A stretch of 38,375 nt of DNA. Origin: a virus. Where the stretch lies: the IMG/VR virus record IMGVR_UViG_3300029130_000025; one strand, written 5' to 3'. Below the pieces are notes generated by a model. That model made no database searches, was not told the origin of the DNA, and was given only the letters and a program-made list of their open reading frames with translations. Below are positions 224-13,318 of this stretch, one piece after another. The first letter of the stretch is position 1; every line of letters begins with the position of its first letter. The position numbers and the translations under genes were made by a program.

Positions 224-1980
224 CACCTATACTGTACAATGCCAATGAGAGAGACTTTGACCACAACGGGATTGGGGCGCTGAGCGGCTGCGTCTCTGCC
301 ACCGCGATATGGAGCCGAAATGGCGAGATGGAGCTTGAACTGGTGTACCCAATGGATGGGATACACTTTGACGAGATAAAGCTGCGCAGAATCATCCTTG
401 CCGCCCCAGATCAGCAATCCAGAGCTCAGCCATACAGGGTGTACGACATCAGTAAGCCGCTTGACGGCTTGGTCACTGTGTATGCAAGGCATGTGGCCTA
501 CGACCTGATGGGGATTGTGGATCAACCGTACACGGCGGCCAGCGTGACGGCGGCGCTAAATGGCCTACGCACAAATGCTGTGACGGATTGCCCCTTTGAC
601 TTTTGGACAGACAAGGACACTGTCGCCAAGATGGAAGTGTCTGTGCCAACGTCCGCTTGGGAGCTGCTGGGAGGCACACAGGGCGGGATCCTTGACACAT
701 ACGGAGGGGAGTATGAGTTTGACCGGTGGACGGTCAAGCTACACAAGCAGAGAGGGTATGACCGTGGGGTGGCGATCCGATACGGTAAAAATATGACCAG
801 CTTGACGCAAGACCAAAGCTGCGAGGCTGTATACACCGGGGTATACCCTTTTTGGGCTGATGTGGATGGCAACATCGTGCAACTTGACGATAGGATCGTA
901 AGTGCGCCGGGGTCGTACGGATTTACAAGGATATACCCACTTGATCTGTCGGCGGAGTGGGAAGATGAACCGACAAAGGACCAGCTAAAGGCTAGAGCGG
1001 AGCGATATATCAAAGACAACAACATTGGGGTCCCAAAGGTCTCCTTGTCCGTCGCATTTTATCCGCTTGACCAGTCCGAGGACTACCAGGGTATCGCAAT
1101 GCTGGAGCAGGTCGGCCCCTGCGACACCGTTACGGTTGAGTTTCCAAGACTTGGTGTGTCGGCTGTCGCTAAGTGCGTCGGGATAAAGTATGATGTGCTC
1201 TCCGAGCGATACGACGAGCTAGAGATTGGAGATGCCAGGACAACCCTAGCTGATACAATCGTGGCTCAGGGCCAAGAGATACAGCAGCGCCCTAGCGACA
1301 GCACCATGCGTGCAGCGGTGATGCAGCTGACGGCGGCTATCCTCGGCGCGTCTGGTGGTGCGGTCCGGCTGCTGGACACCAACAACGACGGCATGCCGGA
1401 CGAGCTATACATCGCAGACAACGATGACCCGGCAAAGGCAAAAAAGGTGTGGCGTTGGAACTATGCCGGATGGGGTGCCAGTTCCAACGGCTACAACGGG
1501 CCATTTACACTCGGCGCAACGTTGGAAGGCGGCATTGTCGCAGACTTTATCACAACCGGGACACTTAACGCAAGTCTAATCCGCGCCGGGGTGCTCACCG
1601 ATGACCGGGGGAAGAACTTCTGGAACATGGAGACCGGGGAGTTTTCCACCTCCGGCACCATTTCCTCCTATGACAGCCCGGACGGCACCCTCAGCGGATA
1701 CCTTGGCTATATGACCGGCGCCACGGAATCCGGCACCACCAGCGGCATCGGCGTGGGCAACGCCTCCGGGGACTGCTATGCCATTGCCACAGGCTCCGGC
1801 ATCCGGCTTCAGGCCGGGGACTACAGCGTTTACGTCACAAAAACCGGGGTGGCGAAGCTCACGGGCAAGGCCGGAAGCGTGCTCATCACCTCCTCCGGGG
1901 ACAAGGGCGCCGGGGTGTATATCACCGGGCGGCTGTTCCGGAGGGGCAGCGAGGGGGACGAGTGGACGAATATTAGTTGA
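220..1980 (+). CDS. Tail-associated protein / prophage tail endopeptidase-type Tal (phage minor structural protein N-terminal region)
   Basis: ATG at 220 overlaps the Dit stop. The N-terminus MTPILYNANERDFDHNGIGALSGC...ELELVYPMDG is typical of siphovirus Tal/endopeptidase tail proteins. It sits directly after Dit. Confidence 0.75.
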   Translation: MTPILYNANERDFDHNGIGALSGCVSATAIWSRNGEMELELVYPMDGIHFDEIKLRRIILAAPDQQSRAQPYRVYDISKPLDGLVTVYARHVAYDLMGIVDQPYTAASVTAALNGLRTNAVTDCPFDFWTDKDTVAKMEVSVPTSAWELLGGTQGGILDTYGGEYEFDRWTVKLHKQRGYDRGVAIRYGKNMTSLTQDQSCEAVYTGVYPFWADVDGNIVQLDDRIVSAPGSYGFTRIYPLDLSAEWEDEPTKDQLKARAERYIKDNNIGVPKVSLSVAFYPLDQSEDYQGIAMLEQVGPCDTVTVEFPRLGVSAVAKCVGIKYDVLSERYDELEIGDARTTLADTIVAQGQEIQQRPSDSTMRAAVMQLTAAILGASGGAVRLLDTNNDGMPDELYIADNDDPAKAKKVWRWNYAGWGASSNGYNGPFTLGATLEGGIVADFITTGTLNASLIRAGVLTDDRGKNFWNMETGEFSTSGTISSYDSPDGTLSGYLGYMTGATESGTTSGIGVGNASGDCYAIATGSGIRLQAGDYSVYVTKTGVAKLTGKAGSVLITSSGDKGAGVYITGRLFRRGSEGDEWTNIS

Positions 1981-2075
1981 ATGGAGTACCGGGCCTGAGC
2001 AGAAAACGGAAACGGTAGGCAGTTTTGCACGGTACAGAGGCCCCTTTGTGTAAAGGGGGCTGTCAGCTTTCGGGG

Positions 2076-2111
2076 CCCCGGCGAAGCCCAGCGTCAGCGG
2101 GTTCGCCGGGG
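2076..2111 (+). promoter_or_regulatory. GC-rich 10-bp stem-loop abutting the RBS of the receptor-binding protein gene
   Basis: ccccggcgaa (2076..2085) pairs with ttcgccgggg (2102..2111). A second hairpin is cccctt/aagggg at 2041..2058. Both lie inside an unusual 145-bp gap in the tail operon. Confidence 0.4.
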
Positions 2112-2125
2112 AGAGGAGGAGCAGA

Positions 2126-3553
2126 ATGATAAATCAAAAATACAATCTTGACATGATCCCGGGTGGCAGCGTCCCGACCATAGTCCATGTGAGCCAATAT
2201 GATGCCGGGTCCAGACACCTGACTTTTGAGCTATACAGCGGCGGGATGCTATGGGATGTGCCGGAGGGGGCCACGGTCACCATTGATGGCACCAAAGCGG
2301 ACCACAAGGCATTTAGCTACATTGCGTCGGCTTCCGGCTCTACGGTGACAGTGACAGTGACCCAGCAGATGACGGCGGCAAAGGGCTTGGCGGAGTGCCA
2401 GCTGACAGTGACCAAGGGGGACTATGTCCTGGGAAGCGCGAACTTTGTTTTGGACGTGGAGTCTTCGGCCATGCCTGCTGACCCGGATCTTTCCCAGACG
2501 GAGATCAGCAGCTTCCAGCAGCTGAAAAACGCCGCCCAGACTGCCGCCTCCAACGCCGCCACCAGCGCCAATGCCGCCGCCGCCAGCGCCGCCGAGGCGG
2601 ACGCCTACAAGCGCTGGCTGATCCCCTACGGGGCATGGCGGCGCTACGATACTCAGGTTTCCACCAACGTCCTTGCCATTGCCACCGGGGAGGGTAACAC
2701 CCTGACTGCGGAGCAAAACCAGCCTGCCACCATCATGACCGAGGACGCCTCTACCCTGACGAACAGCCCCGTGACCTCCGGGGGCTTCTGGGCCCGGCGG
2801 ACGGTGTACCCGGTCAGCAATCCCACCGGCAGTGAGCACATCACCGTGGAGCTGGAGGAATACGAGCCGGTGCTGGGCCGCCGGTGGCTGCGCACCTACT
2901 ACGCCGCCACGGGGAAGTGGAGCGAGAAATGGGTGGAGATCAGCCCGGCCTCCCCGCTGGATCAGATGGTGTCCGGTTCGTCCGCGAACATCAATGACTA
3001 CACAGGCGCTGGGCTGTACTGGCTGAACAAGACCACGGTGACCAACACCCCAAACGGCGGCACCGGCATGCTGATTGTCACCACAAGCCCCACGGGCAAC
3101 GTGATCTATCAGACCTTCGTGAGCTTCAATACGGGCAGCGGCTATGTGGCCACCCGGTGCTACACCAACAGCCAGTGGTATGCATGGGATGAGCGCCCGG
3201 CACCGGCATCTTATGTCGTTCAGGAGGGCACCTCCGGGGCGTGGAGATACCGAATCTGGAGCGACGGCAAGAAGGAGTGCTGGCTCAGCACCTCAATCCA
3301 AACGGAGATTACGTCTGCCTCTGGTAGCCTGTTCTGCTCCGGCATCATCCCGTACCCCTACCCGGTGACATTTACCGGGCATCCAACGGCTTATGTTGGG
3401 GTACGCAGTGCCTACGCCAAGCCGATCTGGGGAATCCCGTCCACACCGTCCTCCGGGACGTCTGTCACCAAGAACGCCTATCTGGAGCTGGTGACAACCA
3501 CAAGCACAGCATCCTATAAAGGGGATATTTACATCTACGCCTGCGGCGTGTAA
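2126..3553 (+). CDS. BppU-N-like baseplate upper / receptor-binding (tail fibre) protein
   Basis: RBS gaggagga. The N-terminus MINQKYNLDMIPGGSVPTIVHVSQYDAGSRHLTFELYSGG resembles the BppU N-terminal Ig-like domain. An Ala-rich coiled linker is followed by a distinct C-terminal domain. It lies after Tal. Confidence 0.6.
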   Translation: MINQKYNLDMIPGGSVPTIVHVSQYDAGSRHLTFELYSGGMLWDVPEGATVTIDGTKADHKAFSYIASASGSTVTVTVTQQMTAAKGLAECQLTVTKGDYVLGSANFVLDVESSAMPADPDLSQTEISSFQQLKNAAQTAASNAATSANAAAASAAEADAYKRWLIPYGAWRRYDTQVSTNVLAIATGEGNTLTAEQNQPATIMTEDASTLTNSPVTSGGFWARRTVYPVSNPTGSEHITVELEEYEPVLGRRWLRTYYAATGKWSEKWVEISPASPLDQMVSGSSANINDYTGAGLYWLNKTTVTNTPNGGTGMLIVTTSPTGNVIYQTFVSFNTGSGYVATRCYTNSQWYAWDERPAPASYVVQEGTSGAWRYRIWSDGKKECWLSTSIQTEITSASGSLFCSGIIPYPYPVTFTGHPTAYVGVRSAYAKPIWGIPSTPSSGTSVTKNAYLELVTTTSTASYKGDIYIYACGV

Positions 3554-3565
3554 AGGGGGAAGCTT

Positions 3566-3838
3566 ATGATAATCCTGAATGAATCCATGGAAGAGATCAC
3601 CGAGTACGATGCCGCAAAGGGCAGCCTCACGGAGACTGTGCGCATCCGCCCGGATGCGGTGCCCATCGACAACGTGACCAAATTTGCTTATGCCGATGAG
3701 GACTATGAGGCCGTGATGATCTACACGCCATATGCGGCGGATGCTGCGCCCAGCACCGAGGACACCATACTGGAGCTGACGGCGGATCATGAGTACCGGC
3801 TGTGCATGCTGGAGCTGAATGGAGGTGAAACGTTATGA
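3566..3838 (+). CDS. Hypothetical tail-module protein (position of XkdW-type proteins)
   Basis: 90-aa ORF with RBS aaggggga. Its stop overlaps the next ATG (ATGA). No domain recognised. Confidence 0.5.
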   Translation: MIILNESMEEITEYDAAKGSLTETVRIRPDAVPIDNVTKFAYADEDYEAVMIYTPYAADAAPSTEDTILELTADHEYRLCMLELNGGETL

Positions 3839-3993
3839 CGAGTGTAAAAAATCTGTGCCTGCTGCTGATCTCGCGGGGGAAAACCGATGGGCTGCAGGAC
3901 AAAATGGACGCCTATCTGGCAGCTGACCGGCTGACCGCAGAAGAGTACACGGAGCTGGCAGAAAAGCTGGCGCAAAAGGAGGAAAACGCTTGA
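3835..3993 (+). CDS. XkdX-like small protein
   Basis: 52-aa ORF, not in the track: MTSVKNLCLLLISRGKTDGLQDKMDAYLAADRLTAEEYTELAEKLAQKEENA. The ...ITAEEY...L motif and its position before the lysis cassette fit the XkdX family. Both ends overlap neighbouring genes. Confidence 0.5.
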   Translation: MTSVKNLCLLLISRGKTDGLQDKMDAYLAADRLTAEEYTELAEKLAQKEENA

Positions 3994-4229
3994 GCGACGT
4001 TTTAAGCGCGGTTATCACGGCGGTTATCACCGGCGGTGTCACTCTGGTTGGCATCCTGATTTCCAACAGCAAAAGTCAGGCGGTCACGGAGACGAAAATT
4101 GACGAGCTGACCCGTGAGGTCAGGGAACACAACAATTTCGCACGGCGCGTGCCGGTGGTTGAGGAACAAATCAGGGTGATTAACCACCGAATCAAGGATT
4201 TAGAAGATGCAGAAAAACACAACGATTAA
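3990..4229 (+). CDS. XhlA-like membrane protein (lysis-associated)
   Basis: TTG start after aggagg. N-terminal TM segment (VLSAVITAVITGGVTLVGILI) followed by a coiled coil. It lies directly upstream of the holin. Confidence 0.5.
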   Translation: MSDVLSAVITAVITGGVTLVGILISNSKSQAVTETKIDELTREVREHNNFARRVPVVEEQIRVINHRIKDLEDAEKHND

Positions 4230-4242
4230 GGAGGGCAAAATC

Positions 4243-4506
4243 ATGGATTTCGGCATTGCGGGCGTGGCGGCTATCACCGTGCTCGCCTATCTGATCGGCC
4301 AGGGGGTTAAAGCCTCCGGGCTGGCTAACAAGTGGATCCCGGTTATTTGCGGAATTACGGGTCTGGTGCTTGGCATCACAGCTCTGTACATCATGCCGGA
4401 TTTCCCGGCGGACGATCCCATTACGGCGGCGGCGATCGGGGCTGTTTCTGGTTTTGCGGCCACCGGCATTAACCAAATTGCGAAGCAGGCCAAAAAGGAG
4501 GACTGA
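4243..4506 (+). CDS. Holin
   Basis: ATG at 4243 after aaggagg. The 87-aa product has three hydrophobic segments and a charged C-terminus (KQAKKED). It lies upstream of the endolysin. Confidence 0.7.
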   Translation: MDFGIAGVAAITVLAYLIGQGVKASGLANKWIPVICGITGLVLGITALYIMPDFPADDPITAAAIGAVSGFAATGINQIAKQAKKED

Positions 4507-4509
4507 CAT

Positions 4510-4689
4510 ATGAGCTACACACCTGAGATTATGGAGTCTATCAAGGCCATGGCCTACGGCGCTACTGACAACGACCTCGTGACCAACTGCGGCATGGATG
4601 CTGCTGAGGTGGCACGCATCCGCACGGAGTATGCCGCAGACATCGAGGCCCGGAGGGCCATTTTGAAGGAGGCCGGTTATAGTGGCTAA
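4510..4689 (+). CDS. Hypothetical small protein between holin and endolysin
   Basis: 59-aa ORF MSYTPEIMESIKAMAYGATDNDL...KEAGYSG. Its end overlaps the GTG start of the endolysin. Confidence 0.4.
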   Translation: MSYTPEIMESIKAMAYGATDNDLVTNCGMDAAEVARIRTEYAADIEARRAILKEAGYSG

Positions 4690-5704
4690 AATCATCGGCA
4701 TTGATGTTTCTGAGCATAACGGTGTGGTCAATTGGTCTGCGGCAAAAAAGGCCGGTATCGGATTCGCGGTAATCCGCACCGGCTATGGCACGAGCCATGT
4801 AGATAAACAGTTCGCGGCCAATATGGCAGGAGCTGCGGCGCAGGGTATTCCCATCGGCATCTATCATTTCTCCTACGCGCTGACCGCTGCAGGGGCAAAG
4901 CAGGAAGCCGACTATGTGATCAAGCTGCTGGCGGCCTATAAAAATCAAATTACGCTACCGGTGTTTTTTGATTTTGAATATGACACTGTTGATTACGCAA
5001 AAAAGCAGGGCGTGACGCTGGGCAAGGACGCATTTAATGCCCATACCGTGGCGTTTTGTGAGCGGATCAAGGCGGCGGGGTACACCCCCGGCACATACTA
5101 CAATCTGGACTATCTCCGCAAATATGTGGACATGGATCAAGTCGGCGGGTATGTACAGTGGTATGCCCAGTATTCCAGCACGGCCAGCGCGGCGGGGCAT
5201 GACATCTGGCAGTATTCCAGCAGCTACACCATTCCGGGCTGTTCCGGCAGGTTTGACGTCAATCTACTGGAAAACACGGCGCTGCTGGGGAAAAAATACA
5301 CCCTTGGCTGGCATCAGGACAGCAAGGGGTGGTGGTATGTGGATACCGAAACTACCTATTATAAGAGCCGCTGGGCGCAGATCGGCGGCGAATGGTACTA
5401 TTTTGACGAAAAGGGGTATATGTTGATGGATACATGGAAAGTGGACAGCACCGGCACTTATTATCTGGGAGAGGACGGCAAGATGATGACGAACCGGATC
5501 GTGGGACTGGGGGCAGACGGAAAGCTCCGGCCCATGGAGCGGTATTACCATCTGCTCTCCGATCTGCCGGACTACTACCGAAAGGAGATTGACCCCTTGA
5601 TCGCCGCCGGAAAGCTCAAGGGCAAGTCCGGCAAAGGAGAAAATCTGGTGCTGGATATGCCTGAAAGCACAGTGCGAGCTATGATCATATTTAATCGAGT
5701 GTAA
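4682..5704 (+). CDS. Endolysin: GH25 muramidase plus cell-wall-binding (choline-binding-like) repeats plus a C-terminal tail
   Basis: IIGIDVSEHNGVVNW...AVIRTGYG...FFDFEYD is a GH25 signature. Aromatic repeats follow: GWWYVD..., GGEWYYFDEKGYMLMDTW, GTYYLGEDGKMMTN. Confidence 0.9.
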   Translation: MAKIIGIDVSEHNGVVNWSAAKKAGIGFAVIRTGYGTSHVDKQFAANMAGAAAQGIPIGIYHFSYALTAAGAKQEADYVIKLLAAYKNQITLPVFFDFEYDTVDYAKKQGVTLGKDAFNAHTVAFCERIKAAGYTPGTYYNLDYLRKYVDMDQVGGYVQWYAQYSSTASAAGHDIWQYSSSYTIPGCSGRFDVNLLENTALLGKKYTLGWHQDSKGWWYVDTETTYYKSRWAQIGGEWYYFDEKGYMLMDTWKVDSTGTYYLGEDGKMMTNRIVGLGADGKLRPMERYYHLLSDLPDYYRKEIDPLIAAGKLKGKSGKGENLVLDMPESTVRAMIIFNRV

Positions 5705-5716
5705 TTGGAGGTAAAA

Positions 5717-5914
5717 ATGCAGATCAAAGACTACACAAAGCCGGAATTAGATAGATTTAGAAGTTTATGTAATTTTACAGACACGGAAATGGCGTTTTTT
5801 GATCTAAGGGCAAGCGGGGCTACGCTGGATGAATGCTGCGGAGAATTGGATTATTCCATGGGTGGAATCTGCAGAATTTCCGGGAAGGTAAAAAAGAAAA
5901 TAAACAGGATTTAG
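5717..5914 (+). CDS. Small sigma-70 region-4 / LuxR-type HTH-like protein
   Basis: ATG after ggagg. FTDTEMAFFDLRASGATLDECCGELDYSMGGICRISGKVKKKI resembles a region-4 HTH. Confidence 0.4.
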   Translation: MQIKDYTKPELDRFRSLCNFTDTEMAFFDLRASGATLDECCGELDYSMGGICRISGKVKKKINRI

Positions 5915-5920
5915 GAAAAT

Positions 5921-5950
5921 AGCGCTACCGTTTGGTAGCGCTATTTTTGT
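5921..5950. terminator. Bidirectional intrinsic terminator between the convergent lysis and moron operons
   Basis: agcgctacc-gttt-ggtagcgct is followed by atttttg on + and by attttcc on the - strand. Confidence 0.8.
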
Positions 5951-5966
5951 CTGCCAGCGGATACCA

Positions 5967-6152
5967 TTATCCGCTCAGCATCGTGTGTTCCACGGCGATC
6001 CGCAGGAGGTTGATCAAGTATGGCGGAGGGTTCCGCTCACCGCCCTCCCATTTTTGCAGTGTGCGTGGATAGATTCCAAACGCTGCGGCAAATTTAACCT
6101 GAGACAGTCCGGTGCTGGCCCGGATGGATTTGATCTGTTCAGCTGGGGTCAT
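5967..6152 (-). CDS. XRE-family HTH protein, last gene of the moron operon (Aca-like / antitoxin-like autoregulator candidate)
   Basis: MTPAEQIKSIRASTGLSQVKFAAAFGIYPRTLQKWEGGERNPPPYLINLL is a classic XRE HTH. I prefer the ATG at 6152 (aggaggtg 8 nt upstream) over the GTG at 6161 used by the track. Confidence 0.75.
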   Translation of the reverse strand: MTPAEQIKSIRASTGLSQVKFAAAFGIYPRTLQKWEGGERNPPPYLINLLRIAVEHTMLSG

Positions 6153-6167
6153 TTTGCGCACCTCCTG

Positions 6168-6548
6168 TTATGCCCACATATCCGGGGCGATAATCTTACG
6201 GCCATCTTTTAACGTGTACACATAGCCTTCATATTCAAAATCGTCCAGCTGCTCTAAAAACAGCCGTGGAAGGTCTCCATCCTCATCATATATGATGTCC
6301 AAATCCGTTCCCGCTTCTCCATCCTCCAACCAGATTCGGCCGGGAATTACGGTGCGGATGTCCTTAACCGCTGCCTCGGTCACATCCTCAAACACGTCAT
6401 CGGCCTCAGGCCACGGCATTGGGAGGCCGAGTGGGCTGAGTACCGGGATTTGGTTGTCATCACAATTCCCCCAGTTAAACACGCCGACGGTGTTGCCGCT
6501 GTAAACGATGATTCCTGCCTCGTGGTTAGTTAATTCCATTAGTGTCAT
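6168..6548 (-). CDS. Hypothetical, extremely acidic 126-aa protein
   Basis: RBS aggagg lies 7 nt upstream. By my count there are 27 D/E against 7 K/R. No domain recognised. Confidence 0.7.
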   Translation of the reverse strand: MTLMELTNHEAGIIVYSGNTVGVFNWGNCDDNQIPVLSPLGLPMPWPEADDVFEDVTEAAVKDIRTVIPGRIWLEDGEAGTDLDIIYDEDGDLPRLFLEQLDDFEYEGYVYTLKDGRKIIAPDMWA

Positions 6549-6594
6549 TTTGATTTCCTCCTATTGATGGTCTACGTTTTGATGTCCTGCTATA

Positions 6595-6942
6595 TCATTT
6601 GATTACTGCAACAACGACTGCATGGCTGATAATGACCTCCTGCGGGTCGTTTCCATATCCCTCGCCCTCTCCGGCGATCAGATACATGTGTGCGCCGTCA
6701 TAGTCCTGCTGACGCGCCAGCGCCTTGCGCACCTCATCAATGTCATCCTCGTCATACCAGAGGTAGCCAAAGCCGGTAGCGCAGGTGCCTGGGAGATAGG
6801 TTTCTTCTGTGTTTTCCCAGTACAGATCACGGGAGCACCCGAGCTCGTCCCCAACATTGAGCACACGGTCATCCGTGCGGAGGCCATACACACAGTATTT
6901 GTTGTTGTTCTCGATCAGCGCATTCAAAACCAGCTCTTCCAT
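6595..6942 (-). CDS. Hypothetical, strongly acidic 115-aa protein
   Basis: RBS ggggga upstream. By my count there are 23 D/E against 8 K/R. It is the first gene behind a consensus promoter. Confidence 0.7.
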   Translation of the reverse strand: MEELVLNALIENNNKYCVYGLRTDDRVLNVGDELGCSRDLYWENTEETYLPGTCATGFGYLWYDEDDIDEVRKALARQQDYDGAHMYLIAGEGEGYGNDPQEVIISHAVVVAVIK

Positions 6943-6973
6943 TTTTGGATCCCCCTTGTTATTAACTGTCTAT

Positions 6974-7002
6974 ATTATACCGCCCAATGGGCAGTATGTC
7001 AA
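6974..7002 (-). promoter_or_regulatory. Consensus sigma-A promoter of the moron operon, with a palindrome in the spacer
   Basis: The minus strand reads TTGACA (7002..6997), a 17-nt spacer, then TATAAT (6979..6974). The spacer contains GCCCA-N-TGGGC. An A-tract-rich UP-like sequence lies upstream. Confidence 0.75.
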
Positions 7003-7038
7003 GCCTTTTTTCGAGATTTTTTGAATATTTTTTGAGCA

Positions 7039-7066
7039 ATATCTGCGCATTCCGGTTGGCAGATAT
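7039..7066. promoter_or_regulatory. Inverted repeat upstream of the accessory operon
   Basis: atatctgc (7039..7046) and gcagatat (7059..7066) are 8-bp arms with a 12-nt spacer. The repeat lies about 35 nt upstream of the first gene's ATG. Confidence 0.4.
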
Positions 7067-7098
7067 ACGCGCTAACATTAAATCAGGAGGTGAGCAAT

Positions 7099-7473
7099 AT
7101 GGCCTATGGATATATGCCGTATGGCAATCAATATGGTGGCTATACAGGGTATGGCAACCAGTATGGCGGATACAACCAACAGCCACAGCGTACAGAGGTG
7201 ATCCACGTAAACGGCCAGAATGGAGCACAGGCGCTCCAAATGGCTCCAAATAGCAGCGCTATCGTGATGGATGATACTGCACCGCTGATTTGGCTCTGTC
7301 AGACCGACGGAGCCGGTTACAAAACGGTTAGAGCATTTGATATAGCTCCACACCAGGACGCACAGACGGCATCTGTCGGTGATTTGGAAAACCGAATTAA
7401 ACGATTGGAGGAAATTGTAAATGGTAAATCCGCTGAACCAGTTTCTGCCGCAAAGCCAAAACCGGCCAAATAA
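7099..7473 (+). CDS. Hypothetical protein with a Tyr/Gly/Gln/Asn-rich N-terminal low-complexity region
   Basis: ATG lies 8 nt after caggagg. The product starts MAYGYMPYGNQYGGYTGYGNQYGGYNQQPQ, continues as a globular region and ends in a coiled segment with a Lys/Pro/Ala tail. Confidence 0.65.
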   Translation: MAYGYMPYGNQYGGYTGYGNQYGGYNQQPQRTEVIHVNGQNGAQALQMAPNSSAIVMDDTAPLIWLCQTDGAGYKTVRAFDIAPHQDAQTASVGDLENRIKRLEEIVNGKSAEPVSAAKPKPAK

Positions 7474-7636
7474 CCCAATATCTATGATTTCCAAATTCCG
7501 CGAATTTGCAGCAGGAATGACGCCAGACAGCGCACGGAAACAGGTGGAGCAGCTACTAGCCTCTGGGCAAATGTCGCAGGAGCAATTTAATCAGCTCAAA
7601 TCGCAAGCGCAAGAATTTTCGAAATTTTTGAAATAA
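7421..7636 (+). CDS. Hypothetical small Gln-rich protein, overlapping the 3' end of the previous gene out of frame (alternative start 7484)
   Basis: ATG 7421 is preceded by ggagga at 9 nt, whereas ATG 7484 has no SD. Product: ...GMTPDSARKQVEQLLASGQMSQEQFNQLKSQAQEFSKFLK. Confidence 0.5.
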   Translation: MVNPLNQFLPQSQNRPNNPISMISKFREFAAGMTPDSARKQVEQLLASGQMSQEQFNQLKSQAQEFSKFLK

Positions 7637-7679
7637 CCCCGGTGCGCAACGGGATTATATAAATTACAAAAGGAGTGAT

Positions 7680-8318
7680 ATGATGGAAAATTATTCTCTG
7701 TCCGATCTCGCGGCTGTGACCAAGGACGCTGACGGAATGGCTGGTAACGGTGCATGGTGGATCATCATCCTGTTTCTGTTTGTCATCATGGGCGGAGGTT
7801 GGAGTGGGTTTAACCGCCAGGGAGAGTATGGACAGTACGCCACGGCGGCATCCCAGCAGGAGATCCTTTATGGACAGCAGTTTGGCCAGATCAATGACCG
7901 GCTGACAAATCTCGGCAACGGAATCTGCAACCTCGGGTATGAGATGCAGGGCAATATCGGGCAGCTCGGCAAGGAGGTCGCACTGGCGCAGGCTGGCACC
8001 AACACCACAATCATGCAGACCGGGAATGCCATCCAGTCTCAGATTGCTCAGTGCTGCTGCGAGAATCGGCTGGCCACCGCAAACCTGTCCGCACAAATTG
8101 ACCGGCAGACCTGCGACATCACTACGGCGATCCACGCCGAGGGTGAGCAGACCAGGGCACTGATGCAGGCAAACGAGATCCAGAGCCTGCGGGATAAGGT
8201 CTCTGCTCTGGAGGCTGACAACCGCATGTATGGTGTGGTTCGCTATCCCAACGGCTACACTTACACCGCCGGGCCTTCCCCGTTCTGCGGCTGCAATAGC
8301 GGCTGCGGGTGTGCATAA
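7680..8318 (+). CDS. Membrane protein with Q/N/G-rich coiled region, CCC motif and Cys-rich C-terminus
   Basis: RBS aaaggag. TM segment AWWIIILFLFVIMGGGW. It contains QCCCENRL...RQTCDIT and ends FCGCNSGCGCA. Confidence 0.7.
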   Translation: MMENYSLSDLAAVTKDADGMAGNGAWWIIILFLFVIMGGGWSGFNRQGEYGQYATAASQQEILYGQQFGQINDRLTNLGNGICNLGYEMQGNIGQLGKEVALAQAGTNTTIMQTGNAIQSQIAQCCCENRLATANLSAQIDRQTCDITTAIHAEGEQTRALMQANEIQSLRDKVSALEADNRMYGVVRYPNGYTYTAGPSPFCGCNSGCGCA

Positions 8319-8349
8319 CAACGTTCAAAAACCGCTCTAACAGCGATAA

Positions 8350-8373
8350 GCCCGGGGCGGATTTGCCCCGGGC
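8350..8373 (+). terminator. Stem-loop (weak terminator or processing site) inside the accessory operon
   Basis: gcccgggg-cggatttg-ccccgggc is followed by atttctg. Confidence 0.4.
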
Positions 8374-8393
8374 ATTTCTGAAAGGAGAACAAT

Positions 8394-8834
8394 ATGAGCT
8401 GCAACAGAAATCTTAAAAATCCCCACTATAAGAGCGCCCAGAACGCTTATAACGACGCATCACAGGCGTTTGTTGCCACCGGCACCCCCGTATCCGTGCT
8501 GGGCGTGCTCAACACTGATACCGGATGCTCTGTGGATACAGTCACAGGGGGCTTCCGGATCAACGCCTCTGGACTTTACCGCGTATCCTATGACGTGACC
8601 TTCACACCGTCAGCTGCTGGCGTGGCGGTGCTCCAGGGACTCAAGGACACGGCAACGCTCCCTTGCCTCAATGCGCAGGAAACGGTAGCCGCTGGCTCTG
8701 TGTACACGCTCCACGCAGAGACTACAATATATGTCCCAGTGTGCTGCAATGGCGCTCCAACAATCAGCGCGACGCTCGGCGGTGTAGCAGGCACGGTTTC
8801 CCATGTATGCGCAAGCGCCGTAAAGCTGGCGTGA
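8394..8834 (+). CDS. BclA C-terminal / C1q-TNF-like jelly-roll domain protein without a collagen stalk
   Basis: RBS aaaggag. FRINASGLYRVSYDVTF...VYTLHAETTIYV...SAVKLA resembles, from memory, the BclA C-terminal domain (FVISETGFYKITV...SIIIEKVA). Confidence 0.55.
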   Translation: MSCNRNLKNPHYKSAQNAYNDASQAFVATGTPVSVLGVLNTDTGCSVDTVTGGFRINASGLYRVSYDVTFTPSAAGVAVLQGLKDTATLPCLNAQETVAAGSVYTLHAETTIYVPVCCNGAPTISATLGGVAGTVSHVCASAVKLA

Positions 8835-8844
8835 GGTGATCGCC

Positions 8845-9321
8845 ATGAAATCCAAATTGAGCGAGTATAAATCCAAGTTGGAGCACGAATTGGCGGAATA
8901 CCTCGATCAGCCAATCGGGACTAGATCCATGGCCGCCGTTGATGCTATGATTGAGTGCTGGGAACACGTTAATGACATGGAACATTGTGTATGCCATAGT
9001 GAGAAGCTGGACGATCAAGCATTGGAGACATGGAATGCCAACATGAAAAACGATGATGGTAGCACCGGTGGACATTGGACAGTAGCCCAGACCACCGACG
9101 CGGCAAAAACCGCAGGGGTAGTAATGGAGCACATTACACCGAATGGATGGAATGCCGCCATGAATATGATGTACTCGGACTATTGCAGCGTGGCAACAAA
9201 GCACGGATGCAACAAGGTAGAGTTTTACGCCGACCTCGCAAAGGCGTTTTTGTTTGACAAGGACGGCCCGGGGCCGGAAGCCAAACTGGCAGCATACTAT
9301 CATGGGATTGTCGTGGGATAA
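8845..9321 (+). CDS. Conserved hypothetical phage protein
   Basis: ATG 8845 lies 6 nt after gaggtg (the track uses GTG 8836). Motifs NMKNDDGSTGGHWTVAQT and MNMMYSDY. No function recognised. Confidence 0.6.
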   Translation: MKSKLSEYKSKLEHELAEYLDQPIGTRSMAAVDAMIECWEHVNDMEHCVCHSEKLDDQALETWNANMKNDDGSTGGHWTVAQTTDAAKTAGVVMEHITPNGWNAAMNMMYSDYCSVATKHGCNKVEFYADLAKAFLFDKDGPGPEAKLAAYYHGIVVG

Positions 9322-9323
9322 GT

Positions 9324-9343
9324 GCTAACGATTACGCTAACAA
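9324..9343 (+). repeat. attP arm repeat gctaacgatt-N-gctaacaa (copy 1), candidate arm-type integrase site
   Basis: gctaacgattacgctaacaa. A near-identical copy, gctaacgatttgctaacaa, lies at 9576..9594 on the other side of the tRNA core. Confidence 0.5.
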
Positions 9344-9367
9344 TAGACTGTATTTTTGCCTGATTCA

Positions 9368-9417
9368 GCATGATCCTGCATGATTCCTCGTGGATTTTCA
9401 AAGCACAGATTTTCAAA
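9368..9417 (+). repeat. Short tandem direct repeats in the attP arm
   Basis: gcatgatcc / gcatgattcc at 9368..9387, and gattttcaaa twice (9393..9402 and 9408..9417). Confidence 0.45.
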
Positions 9418-9433
9418 CAAATACAGTAAAAAA

Positions 9434-9475
9434 GTACCGCATTTACACAAAACCAAGTGCAAATGCGGTACTTTT
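9434..9475. terminator. Bidirectional intrinsic terminator (ends the accessory operon on +; follows the tRNA 3' end on -)
   Basis: gtaccgcattt (9434..9444) pairs with aaatgcggtac (9461..9471). tttt follows on +, and tttttt follows on the - strand. Confidence 0.7.
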
Positions 9476-9538
9476 GGCGCGGAAGGAGGGATTTGAACCC
9501 TCGCGCCGGTTTCCCGGCCTACTCCCTTAGCAGGGGTG
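9475..9538 (-). other. attP core: 3' ~60 nt of a tRNA-Ser(GCU) gene (anticodon loop to CCA), not a complete tRNA
   Basis: The reverse complement reads cacccCTGCTAAgggag-taggccgggaaaccggcgc-gagggTTCAAATccctc-cttccgc-g-CCA. That gives anticodon loop CU-GCU-AA, a long variable arm, a T arm and the acceptor 3' strand. There is no 5' acceptor strand or D arm upstream. Confidence 0.75.
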
Positions 9539-9575
9539 AAAAAATCGTTGCAATTACAAGAAAAATTCGGGATAT

Positions 9576-9594
9576 GCTAACGATTTGCTAACAA
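9576..9594 (+). repeat. attP arm repeat (copy 2)
   Basis: gctaacgatttgctaacaa, matching 9324..9343. Confidence 0.5.
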
Positions 9595-9599
9595 CGATG

Positions 9600-10706
9600 C
9601 TACTCAGACGTTGCCGCCATCTGATTTACGGCGGCATGAGAAGCGGCGGTATCTGGATGGATATAGCGCTGTGTCGTTGTAAATTTGGTGTGGCGCATAA
9701 CCTCCTGAATTACGGACGGTGCAATATTGCCCAGAGCCAGCGCAGTTGCGGTGGTGTGGCGGCAGGAGTACGGCGGGAGGTCTCTGCATCCGGCATTTTT
9801 TACAGCTCTATGATATTCCAGATAGAACTTGTCACGATCCATGCAGAGGACGTAATCTTTCCGGCTCTTTGAGTAATCGCAGAGTTCGTGGAGCACGGGA
9901 GCGACGGACTGTGGAAATACCATGACCGTTTCCTTCCGCTTTCTGGTTTTGAGGCCAGCCCCCCGAATTTCACACTTGTTAAAATCTATCATATCCTTTT
10001 TCAGGATGAATAGTTCCCCCGGCATCATGCCCGTGTAGATCATCAGCAGGATGTAGCCCACAAACGTATCACCGGCGGTGTATGCCGCCCAGAATAGTTT
10101 AATCTCGTCCTCGGTGTACGGGGTCATCTCTTTTTCATCCAGCGGCGGTAGCTCAATATATTCCGCCAGATTTGCCCGGAGATGGCCCTCTGCAACGGCC
10201 ATTTTCAGGAGGTGGGACGCTACGGTTTTCATATCCCGTGCGGGGTAGTATGTGGAGGTCTCAGTGTCCACCTGTCCCTGCAAATCTCCAATGGATAGCT
10301 CGGTTATGGGTTTGTCGTATAGGCCCTCCCAACGCTTCCAAGCGATCTCATAGGCCGTTTGCTTAGATTTTCCAAGCTTGGTAAATGCAGATGAGTGCCA
10401 TGTTTTATGGTACTCGCGGAGTGTAGGCACTTTTACGACAGTTTCCGGAGGGCATGACGCATAGGCCAGCGCGGCCTTTTTTGTGGCAAATCCGCCCTTC
10501 CATTTCCGGGGATAATGGACTTTACCATCATCACCGATATAGCGCGGGGCAGACCATACGGCTGTCCACGTTTTCCCTCGCTTGATGGCCGTCCCCTGTC
10601 CGTTTCCACGGCTTTTTACGCTTGTGGTTACAGTTAATTTAGCCCCGCACTTTGGGCAGAAATTAGCCCCCTCCGGTGCCTCTGAATGGCATTTCCTGCA
10701 TTGCAT
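9600..10706 (-). CDS. int: Tyrosine integrase with an N-terminal zinc-ribbon
   Basis: MQCRKCHSEAPEGANFCPKCGAKL is a CxxC...CxxC ribbon. The C-terminus has ...YSCRHTTATALAL...VMRHTKFTTTQRYIH (R..H..R..Y catalytic pattern). It is adjacent to attP. Confidence 0.9.
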   Translation of the reverse strand: MQCRKCHSEAPEGANFCPKCGAKLTVTTSVKSRGNGQGTAIKRGKTWTAVWSAPRYIGDDGKVHYPRKWKGGFATKKAALAYASCPPETVVKVPTLREYHKTWHSSAFTKLGKSKQTAYEIAWKRWEGLYDKPITELSIGDLQGQVDTETSTYYPARDMKTVASHLLKMAVAEGHLRANLAEYIELPPLDEKEMTPYTEDEIKLFWAAYTAGDTFVGYILLMIYTGMMPGELFILKKDMIDFNKCEIRGAGLKTRKRKETVMVFPQSVAPVLHELCDYSKSRKDYVLCMDRDKFYLEYHRAVKNAGCRDLPPYSCRHTTATALALGNIAPSVIQEVMRHTKFTTTQRYIHPDTAASHAAVNQMAATSE

Positions 10707-10841
10707 AAAGTTCCTCCATCCTTATTGACAGTATGGAGGAACTGCGTTACAATAAATGCGCAGATTCCCTCCATATTTTTTGGATCCTCCCTTTGATCTG
10801 CATGATGTCCTCCCGGTTGGCACACTGGGGGGCATCTTTTT

Positions 10842-11354
10842 TTACTCAAACGCTCCGATCCCGGGATGCAACATATCCCAGATCATATAAGCAATCAGTC
10901 CGGCGGCAACTAGGACAAGAAGAACGGTTGCAGCTGCCGCCCATAAAATCATGATCTTTATGGTTCTGGATTTGCGTTTTATTTCCGCTTGCTGCTCCTC
11001 AATGGTGGTCTGCATCCGGTCTATCTGGGCGGATCGTGCATCAATTCCGCGCTGGCGCTCCCGGTCTGCGTCTTCTCTGACTGCCAGAAGCGCCCGAAGC
11101 GCTGCTATATCCTCCGGTGGCGTTACATCCGGGTTGTAGCCGTCACCGATTACGGCGCGCGCCACGGCTTGCAGGGTGGATACGCGGAATTCCTCGGCTC
11201 TTTCATCGTCCGCAGTAAAAATCCGGCGCACGGAAGACATGGAAACCGGTTCGCCGGCAAGTTCACACGCGTCTACGATATTCTGGTAGGTAAGCCCCTT
11301 TTGCTCCCGCATGACTTTTAGCTGACGGATCAGGGCTATCTGATTTCTGCTCAC
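10842..11354 (-). CDS. HTH (XRE-like) - coiled-coil - C-terminal TM anchor protein
   Basis: GTG 11354 lies 8 nt after agaggag (the track starts at TTG 11408). LTYQNIVDACELAGEPVSMSSVRRIF is the HTH. RERQRGIDARSAQIDRMQTTIEEQQAEIKRK is the coiled coil. IMILWAAAATVLLVLVAAGLIAYMIW is the TM segment. Confidence 0.65.
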   Translation of the reverse strand: MSRNQIALIRQLKVMREQKGLTYQNIVDACELAGEPVSMSSVRRIFTADDERAEEFRVSTLQAVARAVIGDGYNPDVTPPEDIAALRALLAVREDADRERQRGIDARSAQIDRMQTTIEEQQAEIKRKSRTIKIMILWAAAATVLLVLVAAGLIAYMIWDMLHPGIGAFE

Positions 11355-11719: not shown

Positions 11720-12799
11720 TTACTGGTAGGTTTGATTGGCGGCGTAAACCGCCTGGTCGTAGGTAAACCCTTCAAACTCCAGCTGGGACACCAGTCCGTC
11801 ATAAGAAAAGGACGTGTAATCAAGATAATCCTTCGCTTTCTTCACAGCCTGCTCATACCAGTCTGCCCCACAATTGTCAGCGCCATAGACAGCTTGATCG
11901 TGCGTGAACTTGGAATACTCCAGTTGCTCAATCAGGCCGGTATAAGAAAAAGATGAACTCCGCAAATAGCTCTGTGCTTTTTTTAGTGCCTGTTCATACC
12001 AATCTGCACCACAATTGTCTGAAGCATAGGTCGCATCCTCCGTCGAATACCCCTCATATTCCAGCTGCTCAATCAGGCCAGTCCGGGAAAATGCAGATAC
12101 ACGCAAGTAGGATTTTGCCCGTTCCAGTGCATTCTTCTGGGACTGTGTGGGGTCCGTAGGAGTTGCAGAAGGCTGGATCTGCTGCACGAGGCGAACCAGC
12201 ACCGCAGTGCCTTCGATGCGCGTCATATTTTTCTTCGGGTTGAAATTGCCGTTGTTGTCACCATTTACGATCCCAAGGGTACGGAGCAGCTCAACACTGG
12301 GCTGTGCATATCCAGAGATCGCAGAAGCATCCTGAAAGCCGTCTGCAATCTTATCTCCTGCGGCAACGTTCAGACCGAGATTACCGATGGCACGGCCAAC
12401 GATGGTTGCCATGTCCTGACGAGTGATGGGGGAATTGGGGGAAAAGGTCGTATCGCCGGTGCCGTTAATAATGCCGTTATCAACGCCCCAGTAGAGGTAC
12501 GGGATATAGTAGGCGCTATTGTCTACATCGGCAAACTTATATGTATTGGTTCCGCTGCCGGCCATAGCACGGCCAAAGACCGCAATAAACTGGGAACGTG
12601 TCATGGTATCATAGGGCGCAAAGGTGGTAGCAGATTTACCATTGACCATTGAGTGATCCACGGCATAGGTCAATGTATCGCCATACCATGCATCCAGATT
12701 TACATCCGTAAAATCGCTTGCCGATGCGGCAAATACGGACGTGGTGAGCATCAACACTGTAAGCAGCGCCGATGTGATTTTTGCCAGTTGCTTTTTCAT
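11720..12799 (-). CDS. Secreted SLH-anchored protein with three Ltp (host cell surface-exposed lipoprotein, PF07553-type) repeats; candidate superinfection-exclusion protein
   Basis: Signal peptide MKKQLAKITSALLTVLMLTTSVFAASA. Three SLH-like units follow (FTDV...W..., FADVDNSAYY..., FQDASAISGYA...). Then come three repeats ALxxAKSYL..S.FS..GLI.QLE...F....A.Y.....GADW, matching the TP-J34 Ltp repeat as I remember it. Confidence 0.8.
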   Translation of the reverse strand: MKKQLAKITSALLTVLMLTTSVFAASASDFTDVNLDAWYGDTLTYAVDHSMVNGKSATTFAPYDTMTRSQFIAVFGRAMAGSGTNTYKFADVDNSAYYIPYLYWGVDNGIINGTGDTTFSPNSPITRQDMATIVGRAIGNLGLNVAAGDKIADGFQDASAISGYAQPSVELLRTLGIVNGDNNGNFNPKKNMTRIEGTAVLVRLVQQIQPSATPTDPTQSQKNALERAKSYLRVSAFSRTGLIEQLEYEGYSTEDATYASDNCGADWYEQALKKAQSYLRSSSFSYTGLIEQLEYSKFTHDQAVYGADNCGADWYEQAVKKAKDYLDYTSFSYDGLVSQLEFEGFTYDQAVYAANQTYQ

Positions 12800-12910: not shown

Positions 12911-12941
12911 GCAAAAGGAGCAGGGGGGAAGCCCCTACTCC
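12911..12941 (-). terminator. Intrinsic terminator of the repressor gene, overlapping its stop codon
   Basis: The minus strand reads ggagtagggg-cttcc-cccctgctcc, a 10-bp stem with one G-U pair, followed by ttttgc. Confidence 0.7.
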
Positions 12942-13318
12942 TTTCCTTTTGTCAACTCAACAACCAATTGTGCCATGGCCTGCCAGCTTGCTTCCGATAA
13001 TTTCGACAATTTGTAAACAAACTGCCGACGGAATGATTCCGGTTCGTCCTGTAATACGTCGTTGAAGAACTCCATGATTTCCTCATCCTTGGACTTTTTA
13101 ACGTACATATCGCCCTCACCGGTACGGAGCCAATGCTCCGACACGCCGAAGACTCGGCAAATAGACAGGACGGTCTGGTTGGATGGGTTTGTTTTCCCGT
13201 TCTCAATGTTTGACAGTGCTGTTGGCGTAATGCCTATTTTGTCCCCAAGCTGTTGCAAGGTCATTCCGGCGCTTTTCCTGATTTTTTTTATCCTTGCGTT
13301 TATGGTATCACCTCCCAT
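12935..13318 (-). CDS. CI-like repressor (XRE HTH, no S24 peptidase domain)
   Basis: INARIKKIRKSAGMTLQQLGDKIGITPTALSNIENGKTNPSNQTVLSICRVFGVSEHWL. It is divergent from the early operon. Confidence 0.8.
   Translation of the reverse strand: MGGDTINARIKKIRKSAGMTLQQLGDKIGITPTALSNIENGKTNPSNQTVLSICRVFGVSEHWLRTGEGDMYVKKSKDEEIMEFFNDVLQDEPESFRRQFVYKLSKLSEASWQAMAQLVVELTKGKE

Follow-up and report, generated by a model that had tools for sequence, protein, structure and literature searches.

The 38,375-nucleotide (nt) stretch of viral DNA analysed here (IMG/VR virus record IMGVR_UViG_3300029130_000025), which we call the window, carries five co-oriented genes, p1 to p5, that are real, constrained, and linked in a constant order. 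We consider it probable that they make up a conserved cassette, autonomous and without specificity for spores, whose products assemble into a membrane-anchored complex. The cassette is anchored by p3, the most conserved of the five genes, which encodes a bitopic membrane protein with a long helical, cysteine-bearing domain; p4 is, according to its structural model, a stand-alone protein with a TNF/C1q fold of the BxpB/ExsFA/BclA-C type. The parts belong to named families (phrog_16490, phrog_21718, phrog_22984, and DUF7841) or to this known fold; the cassette as a system is undescribed. An earlier description made from the DNA letters (the sequence-only reading) had singled out the block as an attP-proximal accessory operon and proposed that it remodels the spore or cell surface of the lysogen. 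The genes, with their lengths in amino acids (aa) and their Shine–Dalgarno (SD) sequences, are the following:

7099–7473, plus strand: p1, 124 aa; SD AGGAGG, ATG at 7099
7421–7636, plus strand: p2, 71 aa; SD GGAGG, ATG at 7421
7680–8318, plus strand: p3, 212 aa; SD AGGAG, ATG at 7680
8394–8834, plus strand: p4, 146 aa; SD AGGAG, ATG at 8394
8845–9321, plus strand: p5, 158 aa; SD GAGGTG, ATG at 8845

A Conserved and Constrained Gene Block

Each of the five genes has its SD sequence 7–9 nt 5′ of the ATG, which confirms the good ribosome-binding sites noted earlier. The GTG starts at 7090 and 8836, products of a mechanical call of open reading frames (ORFs), are probably not the ones used; p5 homologues are 158 aa long, a length consistent with the ATG at 8845.

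The genes also co-occur as a block in other phages. In a collection of species-representative genomes, the order p1-p2-p3-p4 is found in 12 of 12 relatives, mostly phage-sized contigs of metagenome-assembled genomes labelled Oscillospiraceae, Clostridiales, Lachnospiraceae, or Ruminiclostridium. A collection of viral contigs yielded 286 confirmed relatives, of which 80 were examined: all 80 loci keep p1-p2-p3 in the same order, with p2 and a p1 ORF with an aromatic/G/N/Q-rich N-terminus present in every one, and 78 carry p4 of the window's type (type A, described below). The same four-gene order recurs in the Clostridium perfringens phages HMD-PC1, vB_CpeS-17DYC, and vB_CpeP_PMQ04, in Dulem virus 36, and in the uncultured human-gut phages MT835537 and MT835524. 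Purifying selection acts on all five genes, with ratios of non-synonymous to synonymous substitution rates (dN/dS) of 0.04 for p3, 0.06–0.07 for p5, 0.07–0.12 for p4, 0.11–0.18 for p2, and about 0.24 for p1; the first two genes change far more quickly than p3.

That none of the five is a recognisable virion, lysis, or replication gene agrees with scans of the five proteins and their counterparts against Pfam, NCBIfam, PHROGs, and PADLOC, which gave no such match and returned only DUF7841, sub-threshold BclA_C/C1q, and PHROGs of unknown function. Among defence-system profiles, the only hit was to a ZorA coiled-coil tail, with an expect value (E) of 0.038 in PADLOC and of 0.002 in NCBIfam (16.5 bits against a cut-off of 190). 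A literature search found no mention of DUF7841 or of the cassette PHROGs and no phage-encoded BclA/BxpB-like cassette, in keeping with the earlier remark that no system of such composition has been described.

p3 Anchors the Cassette and Is Widespread among Phages

The p3 protein consists of an acidic N-terminal tail, one transmembrane segment (approximately residues 20–42), a long Q/N/A-rich helical region, and a Cys/Gly-rich C-terminal tail. Its hydrophobic segment at residues 20–38 has a Kyte–Doolittle value of 1.91, and its nine cysteines include C125–C127 and those of a CGCNSGCGCA tail, with LCNLGYE and QCCCEN among its motifs. Hydropathy and cysteine positions thus agree with the single-pass membrane protein with a CCC motif and such a tail that had been read from the sequence. 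The protein matches phrog_16490 (E 8e-14) and has 4259 homologues at E ≤ 1e-3 in a protein collection clustered at 90% identity, and the family comprises at least 907 clusters at 50% identity; members are typically 160–250 aa long, and no domain fusion occurs among the 150 best family representatives. A hydrophobic segment of at least 1.6 (Kyte–Doolittle) lies near residue 23 in 68 of 95 full-length representatives, and CCC is present in 71 of the 95. The Q/N-rich heptads of p3 give a weak match to a trimeric autotransporter stalk, and sequence and profile searches of the PDB produced nothing useful for p1, p3, or p5.

Charge around the membrane segment is distributed unevenly. In 85 family representatives, the N-tail ahead of the segment holds on average 0.7 K+R and 3.5 D+E; the C-terminal flank averages 1.2 K+R, with an Arg typically placed shortly after the segment (GNR/NR) in the sequences listed. 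Under the positive-inside rule, an acidic N-tail nearly free of Lys and Arg, followed by Arg beyond the segment, suggests that p3 is oriented N-out/C-in. We regard a cytoplasmic-face location of the C-domain, predicted in this way, as evenly poised.

Homologues of p3 occur in Suoliviridae crAss-like phages, in Bacteroides uniformis phage C3_41T2LP (hhalign 98.8%, E 6e-17 against p3), and in about 140 Vibrio phages, comprising siphoviruses and N4-like Schitoviridae; those of the Bacteroides and Vibrio phages all fall in phrog_16490, and a Methanomassiliicoccales virus gives a weak hit to the family (E 4e-4). The non-Firmicute homologues keep the G-rich hydrophobic segment, the CCC motif (‘QCCCENRLA.AN’), and a C-terminal ‘…QTANIVNQxRP.P.PAY..C.PY…’ pattern.

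The company and the genomic context of p3 differ among phage groups. In crAss-like cr52_1, a DUF7841 protein, the p3 homologue, a small β protein (type B, below), and a β + coiled-coil protein are neighbours, and the same set is found in C3_41T2LP; no p1 or p2 is recognisable in the crAss cassettes. The vibriophage cassette is reduced to p3 and an acidic protein of 62–66 aa, and in vibriophage 1.238.B it lies antisense between structural genes. The C. perfringens phages have the block in a region of early and recombination genes, and the stretch examined there contains no integrase. Its spread through crAss-like, Bacteroides, and Vibrio phages shows that the core of the cassette extends beyond spore-formers, temperate phages, and the attP-proximal site; the label ‘attP-proximal’ holds for the phage lineage of the window but is not a property of the module.

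p4 Is Predicted to Be a Free-Standing TNF-like Jelly Roll

The earlier likening of p4 to the C-terminal jelly roll of BclA and to C1q is borne out at the level of the fold. By sequence, its Pfam hits remain below threshold (BclA_C, PF18573, E 9e-5, 22.8 bits against a gathering cut-off of 38; C1q, E 0.014), as do those of its relatives (BclA_C E 1e-6 to 2e-4), and some homologues carry a precomputed PF18573 hit; a sequence search of the PDB returned adiponectin (E 0.0025), and a tblastn search of the phage collection gave no hit. The AlphaFold2 model, built with 50 homologues (predicted local distance difference test, pLDDT, 90.7; predicted template-modelling score, pTM, 0.83), is a ten-strand TNF-like jelly roll with 305 Foldseek hits in the PDB at E ≤ 0.001. 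The best of these is Bacillus anthracis BxpB (8d02; E 1.2e-9, template-modelling score, TM, 0.72), accompanied by the BclA C-terminal domain (BclA-CTD; 3tyj/1wck), Bacillus cereus ExsFA (7r1m), and the ExsF/F-Anchor complex; the matches to BxpB, BclA-CTD, and ExsFA span TM 0.69–0.75 and E 1e-9 to 1e-8, at 13–17% sequence identity. Further matches include C1QL, EDA/TNF ligands, domains of cyanophage tail fibres, and the tail-needle knobs of Sf6 and HS1. Since model and matches concur, we take the C1q/BclA-like assignment to be correct at fold level. The jelly roll begins at about residue 15; p4 has six cysteines, no collagen GXY repeats, and no exosporium leader.

The p4 slot is not always filled by the same protein. 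Besides type A, the form of the window, relatives may have a diverged type A′ (hhalign 97.9% to A) or type B, a small β protein that often has an N-terminal CxxC. Types A and B show no detectable homology (hhalign 0.65%), and the type-B profile found only a non-significant cerebellin hit in the PDB (E 0.4).

The structural neighbours of p4 bear on the proposal that a lysogen of sporulating Clostridia builds three phage proteins (p4, Cys-rich p3, and Tyr/Gly-rich p1) into the outer layers of its spores, or otherwise converts the cell surface. The best matches are indeed the exosporium proteins BxpB, ExsFA, and BclA-CTD, but p4 has neither the collagen repeats nor the exosporium leader, stays under the Pfam BclA_C threshold, and has a fold whose TNF-like knobs phage fibres often carry as well. 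In composition (Cys-rich, Tyr/Gly-rich, and ferritin-like) the cassette recalls coat and exosporium proteins, its proteins lack signal peptides, as do mother-cell-assembled ones, the block lies at a prophage end, and the phage encodes a Spo0A_C protein, with a GerE/sigma-r4-like helix-turn-helix (HTH) gene beside the block. Against the proposal stand the occurrence of p3, DUF7841, and the small β protein of the p4 slot together in crAss-like/Bacteroides phages and of p3 in vibriophages, the hosts of which do not sporulate, and the early-gene position in the C. perfringens phages. With the core genes in such phages, remodelling of the spore surface finds no support as a general explanation, and we consider spore or surface conversion highly improbable, if still conceivable in the Clostridial subset.

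The same structural list includes a chain of the cyanophage A4 tail complex, the receptor-binding domain of the A-1(L) short fibre, and the Sf6/HS1 knobs, and could place the cassette in the virion, or among its assembly factors, as a trimeric p3 stalk with a TNF-like p4 knob in the manner of the Sf6/HS1 tail needle or of cyanophage fibres. Genes like p3 follow receptor-binding or leucine-rich-repeat tail genes in Dulem virus 36 and cr273_1, and the C-terminus of the β + coiled-coil partner in C3_41T2LP matches phrog_473, ‘virion structural protein’ (E 1.4e-8). Against this reading, p3 carries a bona fide hydrophobic membrane segment near its N-terminus, and the operon stands outside the structural operon, behind a terminator and downstream of the lysis genes; it is antisense to structural genes in vibriophage 1.238.B and lies among early/replication genes in the C. 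perfringens phages and C3_41T2LP. The low-complexity and ferritin-like partners are not fibre-like. The crAss annotations that read ‘spike / viral fiber’, like the labels ‘spike protein/glycoprotein’ and ‘RNA polymerase sigma factor/ubiquitin-like protein’, are automated remote-homology names. A virion role seems to us very unlikely.

p1, p2, and the Fifth Slot

Earlier described as a Tyr/Gly/Gln-rich low-complexity protein, p1 fits this description over residues 1–31 (77% Y/G/N/Q), but the remainder is not low-complexity: in the family alignment, the N-terminus is followed by a conserved small globular segment (…VNGxNGAxA…PNSS…W…TDGAGY…), a short coiled coil (RLEEIVNG), and a basic tail. The protein matches phrog_21718 (E 1.4e-7); it has no signal peptide and no sequence match in the PDB. 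As stated before, p2 is small and Gln-rich (71 aa, 15% Gln), with an NP-motif N-terminus and a Gln-rich helical C-terminus, and it matches phrog_22984 (E 1.2e-11). Translation of p2 begins in the +1 frame relative to p1, the first 53 nt of the gene overlapping p1 (7421–7473), with the SD GGAGG and the ATG within the p1 codons for the conserved RLEEIVNG. An overlap of 53–59 nt in the same frame relation is present in the three relatives that were frame-checked (L007, L010, and L014), and other relatives of the window lineage have one of similar length; in the C. perfringens phages and Dulem virus 36 it is only 4–8 nt. Homology of p1 to the β + coiled-coil partner of the Bacteroides phages or to the 62–66-aa Vibrio partner is not claimed, as no significant match was found despite an ‘F(I/V)PAVE’ motif.

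The conserved hypothetical protein p5 turns out to be a member of Pfam DUF7841 (PF25223; E 1e-20, 74.6 bits against a cut-off of 25.2), and PF25223 is found in 120 of 120 p5 homologues among the matches listed. It combines an N-terminal Cys-bearing helical hairpin with the DUF7841 helical domain. Its AlphaFold2 model (pLDDT 91.5) has seven helices, finds no match among PDB folds (best E 1.3), and in the viral structure library BFVD matches only DUF7841 proteins, mostly of crAss-like phages; gp22 of cr52_1 aligns to p5 with hhalign 99.5% and E 5e-23. The idea that p5 is a ferritin-like protein in disguise was not confirmed, since its fold has no PDB match.

In relatives, the fifth slot holds either DUF7841 or a half-ferritin of about 100 aa, the latter in roughly half of the cassettes (as in loci L008, L010, L012, L013, L015, L016, L018, and L019). 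Residues E14, Y21, E46, and H49 of the half-ferritin, the E-x6-Y … ExxH ferroxidase residues of helices A and B, are invariant; its profile matches Mycobacterium tuberculosis BfrB (E 2e-4) with the ferroxidase residues aligned, and Pfam Rubrerythrin is hit at E 0.003. Larger ferritin-like proteins (phrog_17879) are encoded at the cassette region in the C. perfringens phages and Dulem virus 36. The half-ferritin may link iron or redox chemistry to the Cys-rich proteins.

Transcription Signals and a Probable Insulated Unit

Most relatives have a strong intrinsic terminator (a 10–14-bp GC-rich stem with a T-run) 30–100 nt upstream of p1, which ends the lysis operon or a small HTH gene; a loose terminator detector flagged 67 of 70 upstream regions, whereas of 70 control regions taken from inside p3 it flagged 12. 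Between terminator and SD, 29 of the 54 distinct regions have a −10 box (shuffles: 12.7 ± 3.0) and 11 have an extended −10 element (shuffles: 5.2 ± 2.1); at the place of a −35 element there are often direct repeats. The terminators and the −10 enrichment suggest that in these relatives the cassette is an insulated unit with housekeeping-type promoters that are possibly activator-dependent. The sigE/sigK-type promoters that a role in spores would call for did not appear: either form of the −10 motif (CATA[CT]A.T or CATA...TA, the consensus being from Bacillus and Clostridium) is found in 0 of the 54 upstream regions, and none was seen upstream of p1 in the window.

A candidate for a dedicated activator is the small HTH gene (69–90 aa) that precedes the block in many relatives as the last gene after holin and endolysin, although its membership of the cassette is uncertain. 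The window's copy (5705–5914) shares 31% identity over 51 aa with the 80-aa gene that precedes p1 in L105 (8367–8609), which has a faint Pfam GerE hit; the counterpart in L007 (4059–4331) matches Sigma70_r4_2 (E 6e-6).

Unlike most relatives, the window has a divergent promoter region upstream of p1. Signals at and around the cassette are as follows:

7002..6974, minus strand: perfect sigma-70 promoter, TTGACA-17-TATAAT, driving the minus-strand gene pair upstream of the cassette
7039–7046 and 7059–7066: 8-bp inverted repeat ATATCTGC-N12-GCAGATAT, preceding p1, in the divergent intergenic region
8349–8375, plus strand: GC-rich hairpin GCCCGGGGC-N6-GCCCCGGGC, 9 bp, in the 75-nt gap between p3 and p4 (read from sequence)
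9430–9475: hairpin with 19-bp arms, 95% complementary, 8-nt loop, at the operon end and directly abutting the att core

The inverted repeat noticed earlier is present but carries little weight. An equally good one arises in 6% of shuffles of the intergenic region, and as an operator it was rejected, being broken without compensation in the close relatives L024 and L011; evidence that 7039–7066 is functional is weak. The hairpin at 8349–8375 could be an attenuator or RNA-stabilising element that uncouples expression of p1–p3 from that of p4–p5, and the one at 9430–9475 is likely a terminator. An Rfam scan of 6900–9700 found nothing.

The Phage and Its Relatives

The window is a complete, circularly permuted genome of a temperate siphophage, with no close backbone relative among isolated phages by megablast. 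The main features outside the cassette are listed below:

Left end of the window: tail genes
4682–5704: GH25/choline-binding endolysin, upstream of the block
5705–5914, plus strand: 69-aa small sigma-70 region-4/GerE-like HTH gene, directly 3′ of the endolysin
6168–6548 and 6595–6942, minus strand: two small acidic genes between the lysis genes and the cassette
~9476–9537, minus strand: 3′ fragment of a tRNA-Ser, next to the integrase
9600–10706, minus strand: zinc-ribbon tyrosine integrase, assigned by domain hits
33786–37802: tape-measure gene

One gene of the minus-strand pair (6168–6942) matches phrog_18666, and the pair is present in only some close relatives. The fragment at ~9476–9537 is 88–96% identical to phage sequences over about 55–60 nt (94–96% where the match is to annotated phage tRNA-Ser genes), and one pair of matching records annotates the stretch as tRNA-Ser (Lactobacillus phage LfeInf, 94.5% over 55 nt); no complete tRNA was found in the window. 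This fragment is the probable attP core. As regards its nearness to attP, the block does occupy a lysogenic-conversion position, but it does not directly follow the lysin, with the HTH gene and the two minus-strand genes intervening. That it would come to lie at the prophage end after integration is borne out by the integrated relative L105, on a 799-kb contig: the cassette forms the terminal segment of this prophage, with some 170 nt between it and attR, which derives from tRNA-Ala. L105 differs from the window in integrase and att type.

Two assemblies hold a 10.4-kb relative of prophage L105 bounded by tRNA-Ala att repeats (L106, ~690–11140, and L107). This element keeps an integrase, a resolvase, a portal fragment, a holin fragment, an HTH gene, and intact p1–p5, and has lost the head and tail genes; over the cassette it is ~100% identical to the intact prophage (0–1 mismatch in ~12 kb). 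It may have arisen by recent deletion or be a satellite-like element, and the near-perfect identity makes it uninformative on long-term retention of the cassette. Reverse transcriptase genes stand beside tail-fibre-like genes a few kb 5′ of the cassette in crAss-like cr52_1 and prophage L105 (L021 3744–4769; L105 4930–6027) and probably represent diversity-generating retroelements.

Two further genes of the window deserve mention. In the lysogeny region, between the integrase end and an HTH_3 repressor-type gene (12935–13318; the window encodes HTH repressor-type genes), the minus-strand gene at 11720–12799 encodes 359 aa that combine three SLH domains with three repeats of Ltp (‘host cell surface-exposed lipoprotein’), a superinfection-exclusion family. 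The presence of SLH domains implies that the host wall carries a polymer of the S-layer type; together with the GH25 choline-binding endolysin, it points to a wall of the Gram-positive type. The receiver-less Spo0A domain reported earlier is also there: the plus-strand gene at 15627–15983 encodes 118 aa with the Spo0A C-terminal DNA-binding domain alone (Pfam Spo0A_C E 2.5e-10, 40.7 bits against a cut-off of 25). Such an effector-domain mimic could interfere with host sporulation or with 0A-box regulation.

Nearness to lysis genes has to be weighed as well. The cassette follows holin/endolysin by 0.1–1.4 kb in the window lineage, is ~3.5 kb away from lysis genes in the C. perfringens phages, 1.4 kb from the lysozyme in Vibrio phage 19E33.1, and ~2 kb from the endolysin in cr273_1, and adjoins a ‘LysB/FtsL-like’ gene in cr52_1. 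A coiled coil and cysteines in a bitopic protein are the layout of an i-spanin or a class III holin, and p3 might accordingly be a large single-pass lysis regulator or effector, comparable to T4 holin T or the i-spanins, with cytoplasmic partners that tune the timing or completeness of lysis. The cassette nonetheless appears to be a separate transcription unit behind a terminator in phages that already have a canonical holin and endolysin, and morons simply accumulate at the ends of late operons. No signal peptide or lipobox is found in p1, p2, p4, or p5, and for want of a lipoprotein partner p3 is not half of a spanin pair; Gram-positive hosts, moreover, have no outer membrane. The predicted topology of p3 is opposite to that of T4 T, and no lysis match was obtained in Pfam or PHROG. 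We judge a lysis-linked role quite unlikely.

A Model for a Membrane-Tethered Complex

We favour an explanation in which the five genes are a horizontally mobile ‘moron’, with its own transcription unit at the edge of the late region, that would encode a multi-protein complex tethered to the cytoplasmic membrane. Its steps may be put as follows:

(i) p3 would be inserted with its coiled-coil stalk, CCC knot, and Cys/Gly tail facing the cytoplasm, beside four partners without signal peptides; p1, p2, p4, and p5 lack a hydrophobic N-terminal segment and hence do not look secreted.

(ii) The Q/N-rich heptads of p3 and the trimeric nature of the TNF fold suggest a trimeric p3 stalk with a trimeric p4 head. 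ExsF trimers dock the extended N-terminal peptides of their partners in inter-subunit clefts (PMC12357932), and by analogy the p3 tail may recruit a p4 trimer that serves as an ExsF-like peptide-docking adaptor; p4 could, on the same pattern, bind the p3 tail or the N-termini of p1 and p2.

(iii) Soluble p1, p2, and p5 would join this complex, held by Cys–metal links or, once oxidised, by disulfides. An anchor, a stalk, a TNF-like head, and Cys- and Tyr/Gly-rich partners are a building principle that resembles the exosporium nap and basal layer, and the composition recalls exosporium or keratin/KAP-type cross-linked materials; this may be the grain of truth in the spore analogy.

(iv) The complex would counter other phages from the membrane of the infected cell or lysogen, by superinfection exclusion or a related envelope conversion, with the conserved anchor engaging the membrane and the rapidly exchanged p4 and p1 giving specificity. 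This, our leading if weak guess, draws on the moron-like architecture, the site at the operon or prophage boundary, the conserved anchor with its fast modular partners, and the presence in temperate and virulent carriers; the modular exchange of the p4 and fifth slots is typical of conflict systems.

Taken as a whole (an autonomous mobile cassette, a membrane-tethered complex, and a role against other phages), the explanation is tentative, possible rather than probable, and superinfection exclusion in particular is unlikely. Several observations weigh against it. None of the roles is backed by a homologue of known function. The topology is drawn only from charge statistics, and a Cys-rich coiled coil would fit an oxidising extracytoplasmic site equally well; the hydrophobic segment of p3 is short in the Vibrio homologues; and synteny is the sole source for a five-protein complex. 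Upstream of p1, the plus strand of the window shows no convincing housekeeping promoter, and if the HTH gene upstream is expressed late, the cassette could serve very late in the lytic cycle instead of in the lysogen. Known superinfection-exclusion systems usually consist of one small protein, and this phage already encodes an Ltp-type one. Finally, the cassette lies ~0.1–4.5 kb from lysis genes in several unrelated phage groups, which would also fit a lysis-linked role.

A broader reading, which we find rather doubtful, treats the cassette as the Firmicute version of an unrecognised, very widespread phage system around phrog_16490 that lays a cross-linked, Cys/Tyr-rich, exosporium- or keratin-like layer on the membrane of infected cells or lysogens. 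The TNF-fold protein would be its adaptor, and DUF7841 or the half-ferritin an accessory or redox partner; if true, it would add a new kind of envelope remodelling directed by phages.

Whatever the role, the p3 family joins abundant human-gut phages (Oscillospiraceae-type siphophages and crAss-like phages) with marine vibriophages, and such a spread, combined with strong purifying selection and an apparently insulated cassette, probably points to a general phage–host or phage–phage step at the membrane. A TNF fold of the BxpB/BclA type, best known from exosporia, appears here as a free-standing subunit used by phages. Solving the role of the cassette would annotate thousands of ‘hypothetical’ genes and could reveal a new mechanism of exclusion, lysis control, or envelope remodelling.

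Comparison with Known Systems

The cassette compares with the systems nearest to it as follows:

(i) Like BxpB, ExsFA, and BclA-CTD of the Bacillus exosporium, p4 is predicted to be a stand-alone jelly roll, of ~146 aa and with no signal peptide. It differs in being phage-encoded, in its 13–17% identity to them, in its replacement by type B in related cassettes, and in belonging to a cassette that is also found in phages of non-sporulating hosts; BclA proper has an exosporium leader and collagen-like GXY repeats, whereas p4 has neither.

(ii) With morons such as lambda bor and lom or the toxin genes of staphylococcal and streptococcal phages, the cassette shares a place after the lysis genes near att and mobility between unrelated backbones; in relatives it lies behind a strong terminator, has promoter-like elements of its own, and closes with another terminator. 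Morons comprise one or two genes, however, and the cassette five, and its core is also found in apparently virulent phages (crAss-like and N4-like).

(iii) The exclusion proteins Ltp, Sie2009, T4 Imm, and HK97 gp15 are likewise membrane-anchored, accessory, fast-evolving, and encoded near lysogeny or late-operon boundaries, a likeness that serves as functional conjecture only; they are single small proteins with no sequence or fold similarity to the cassette.

(iv) The Sf6/HS1 tail-needle knobs and C1q-like fibre tips also put a TNF-like trimeric head on a trimeric coiled coil (Foldseek E ~2e-6 for p4). There, stalk and knob are one polypeptide, encoded in the tail operon and without a transmembrane segment, whereas the cassette has two genes, a separate operon, and a membrane-anchored stalk.

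(v) The phrog_16490 and DUF7841 proteins of crAss-like phages are true homologues of p3 and p5 and are adjacent to one another there too; they differ in being accompanied by a type-B small β protein and by no recognisable p1 or p2.

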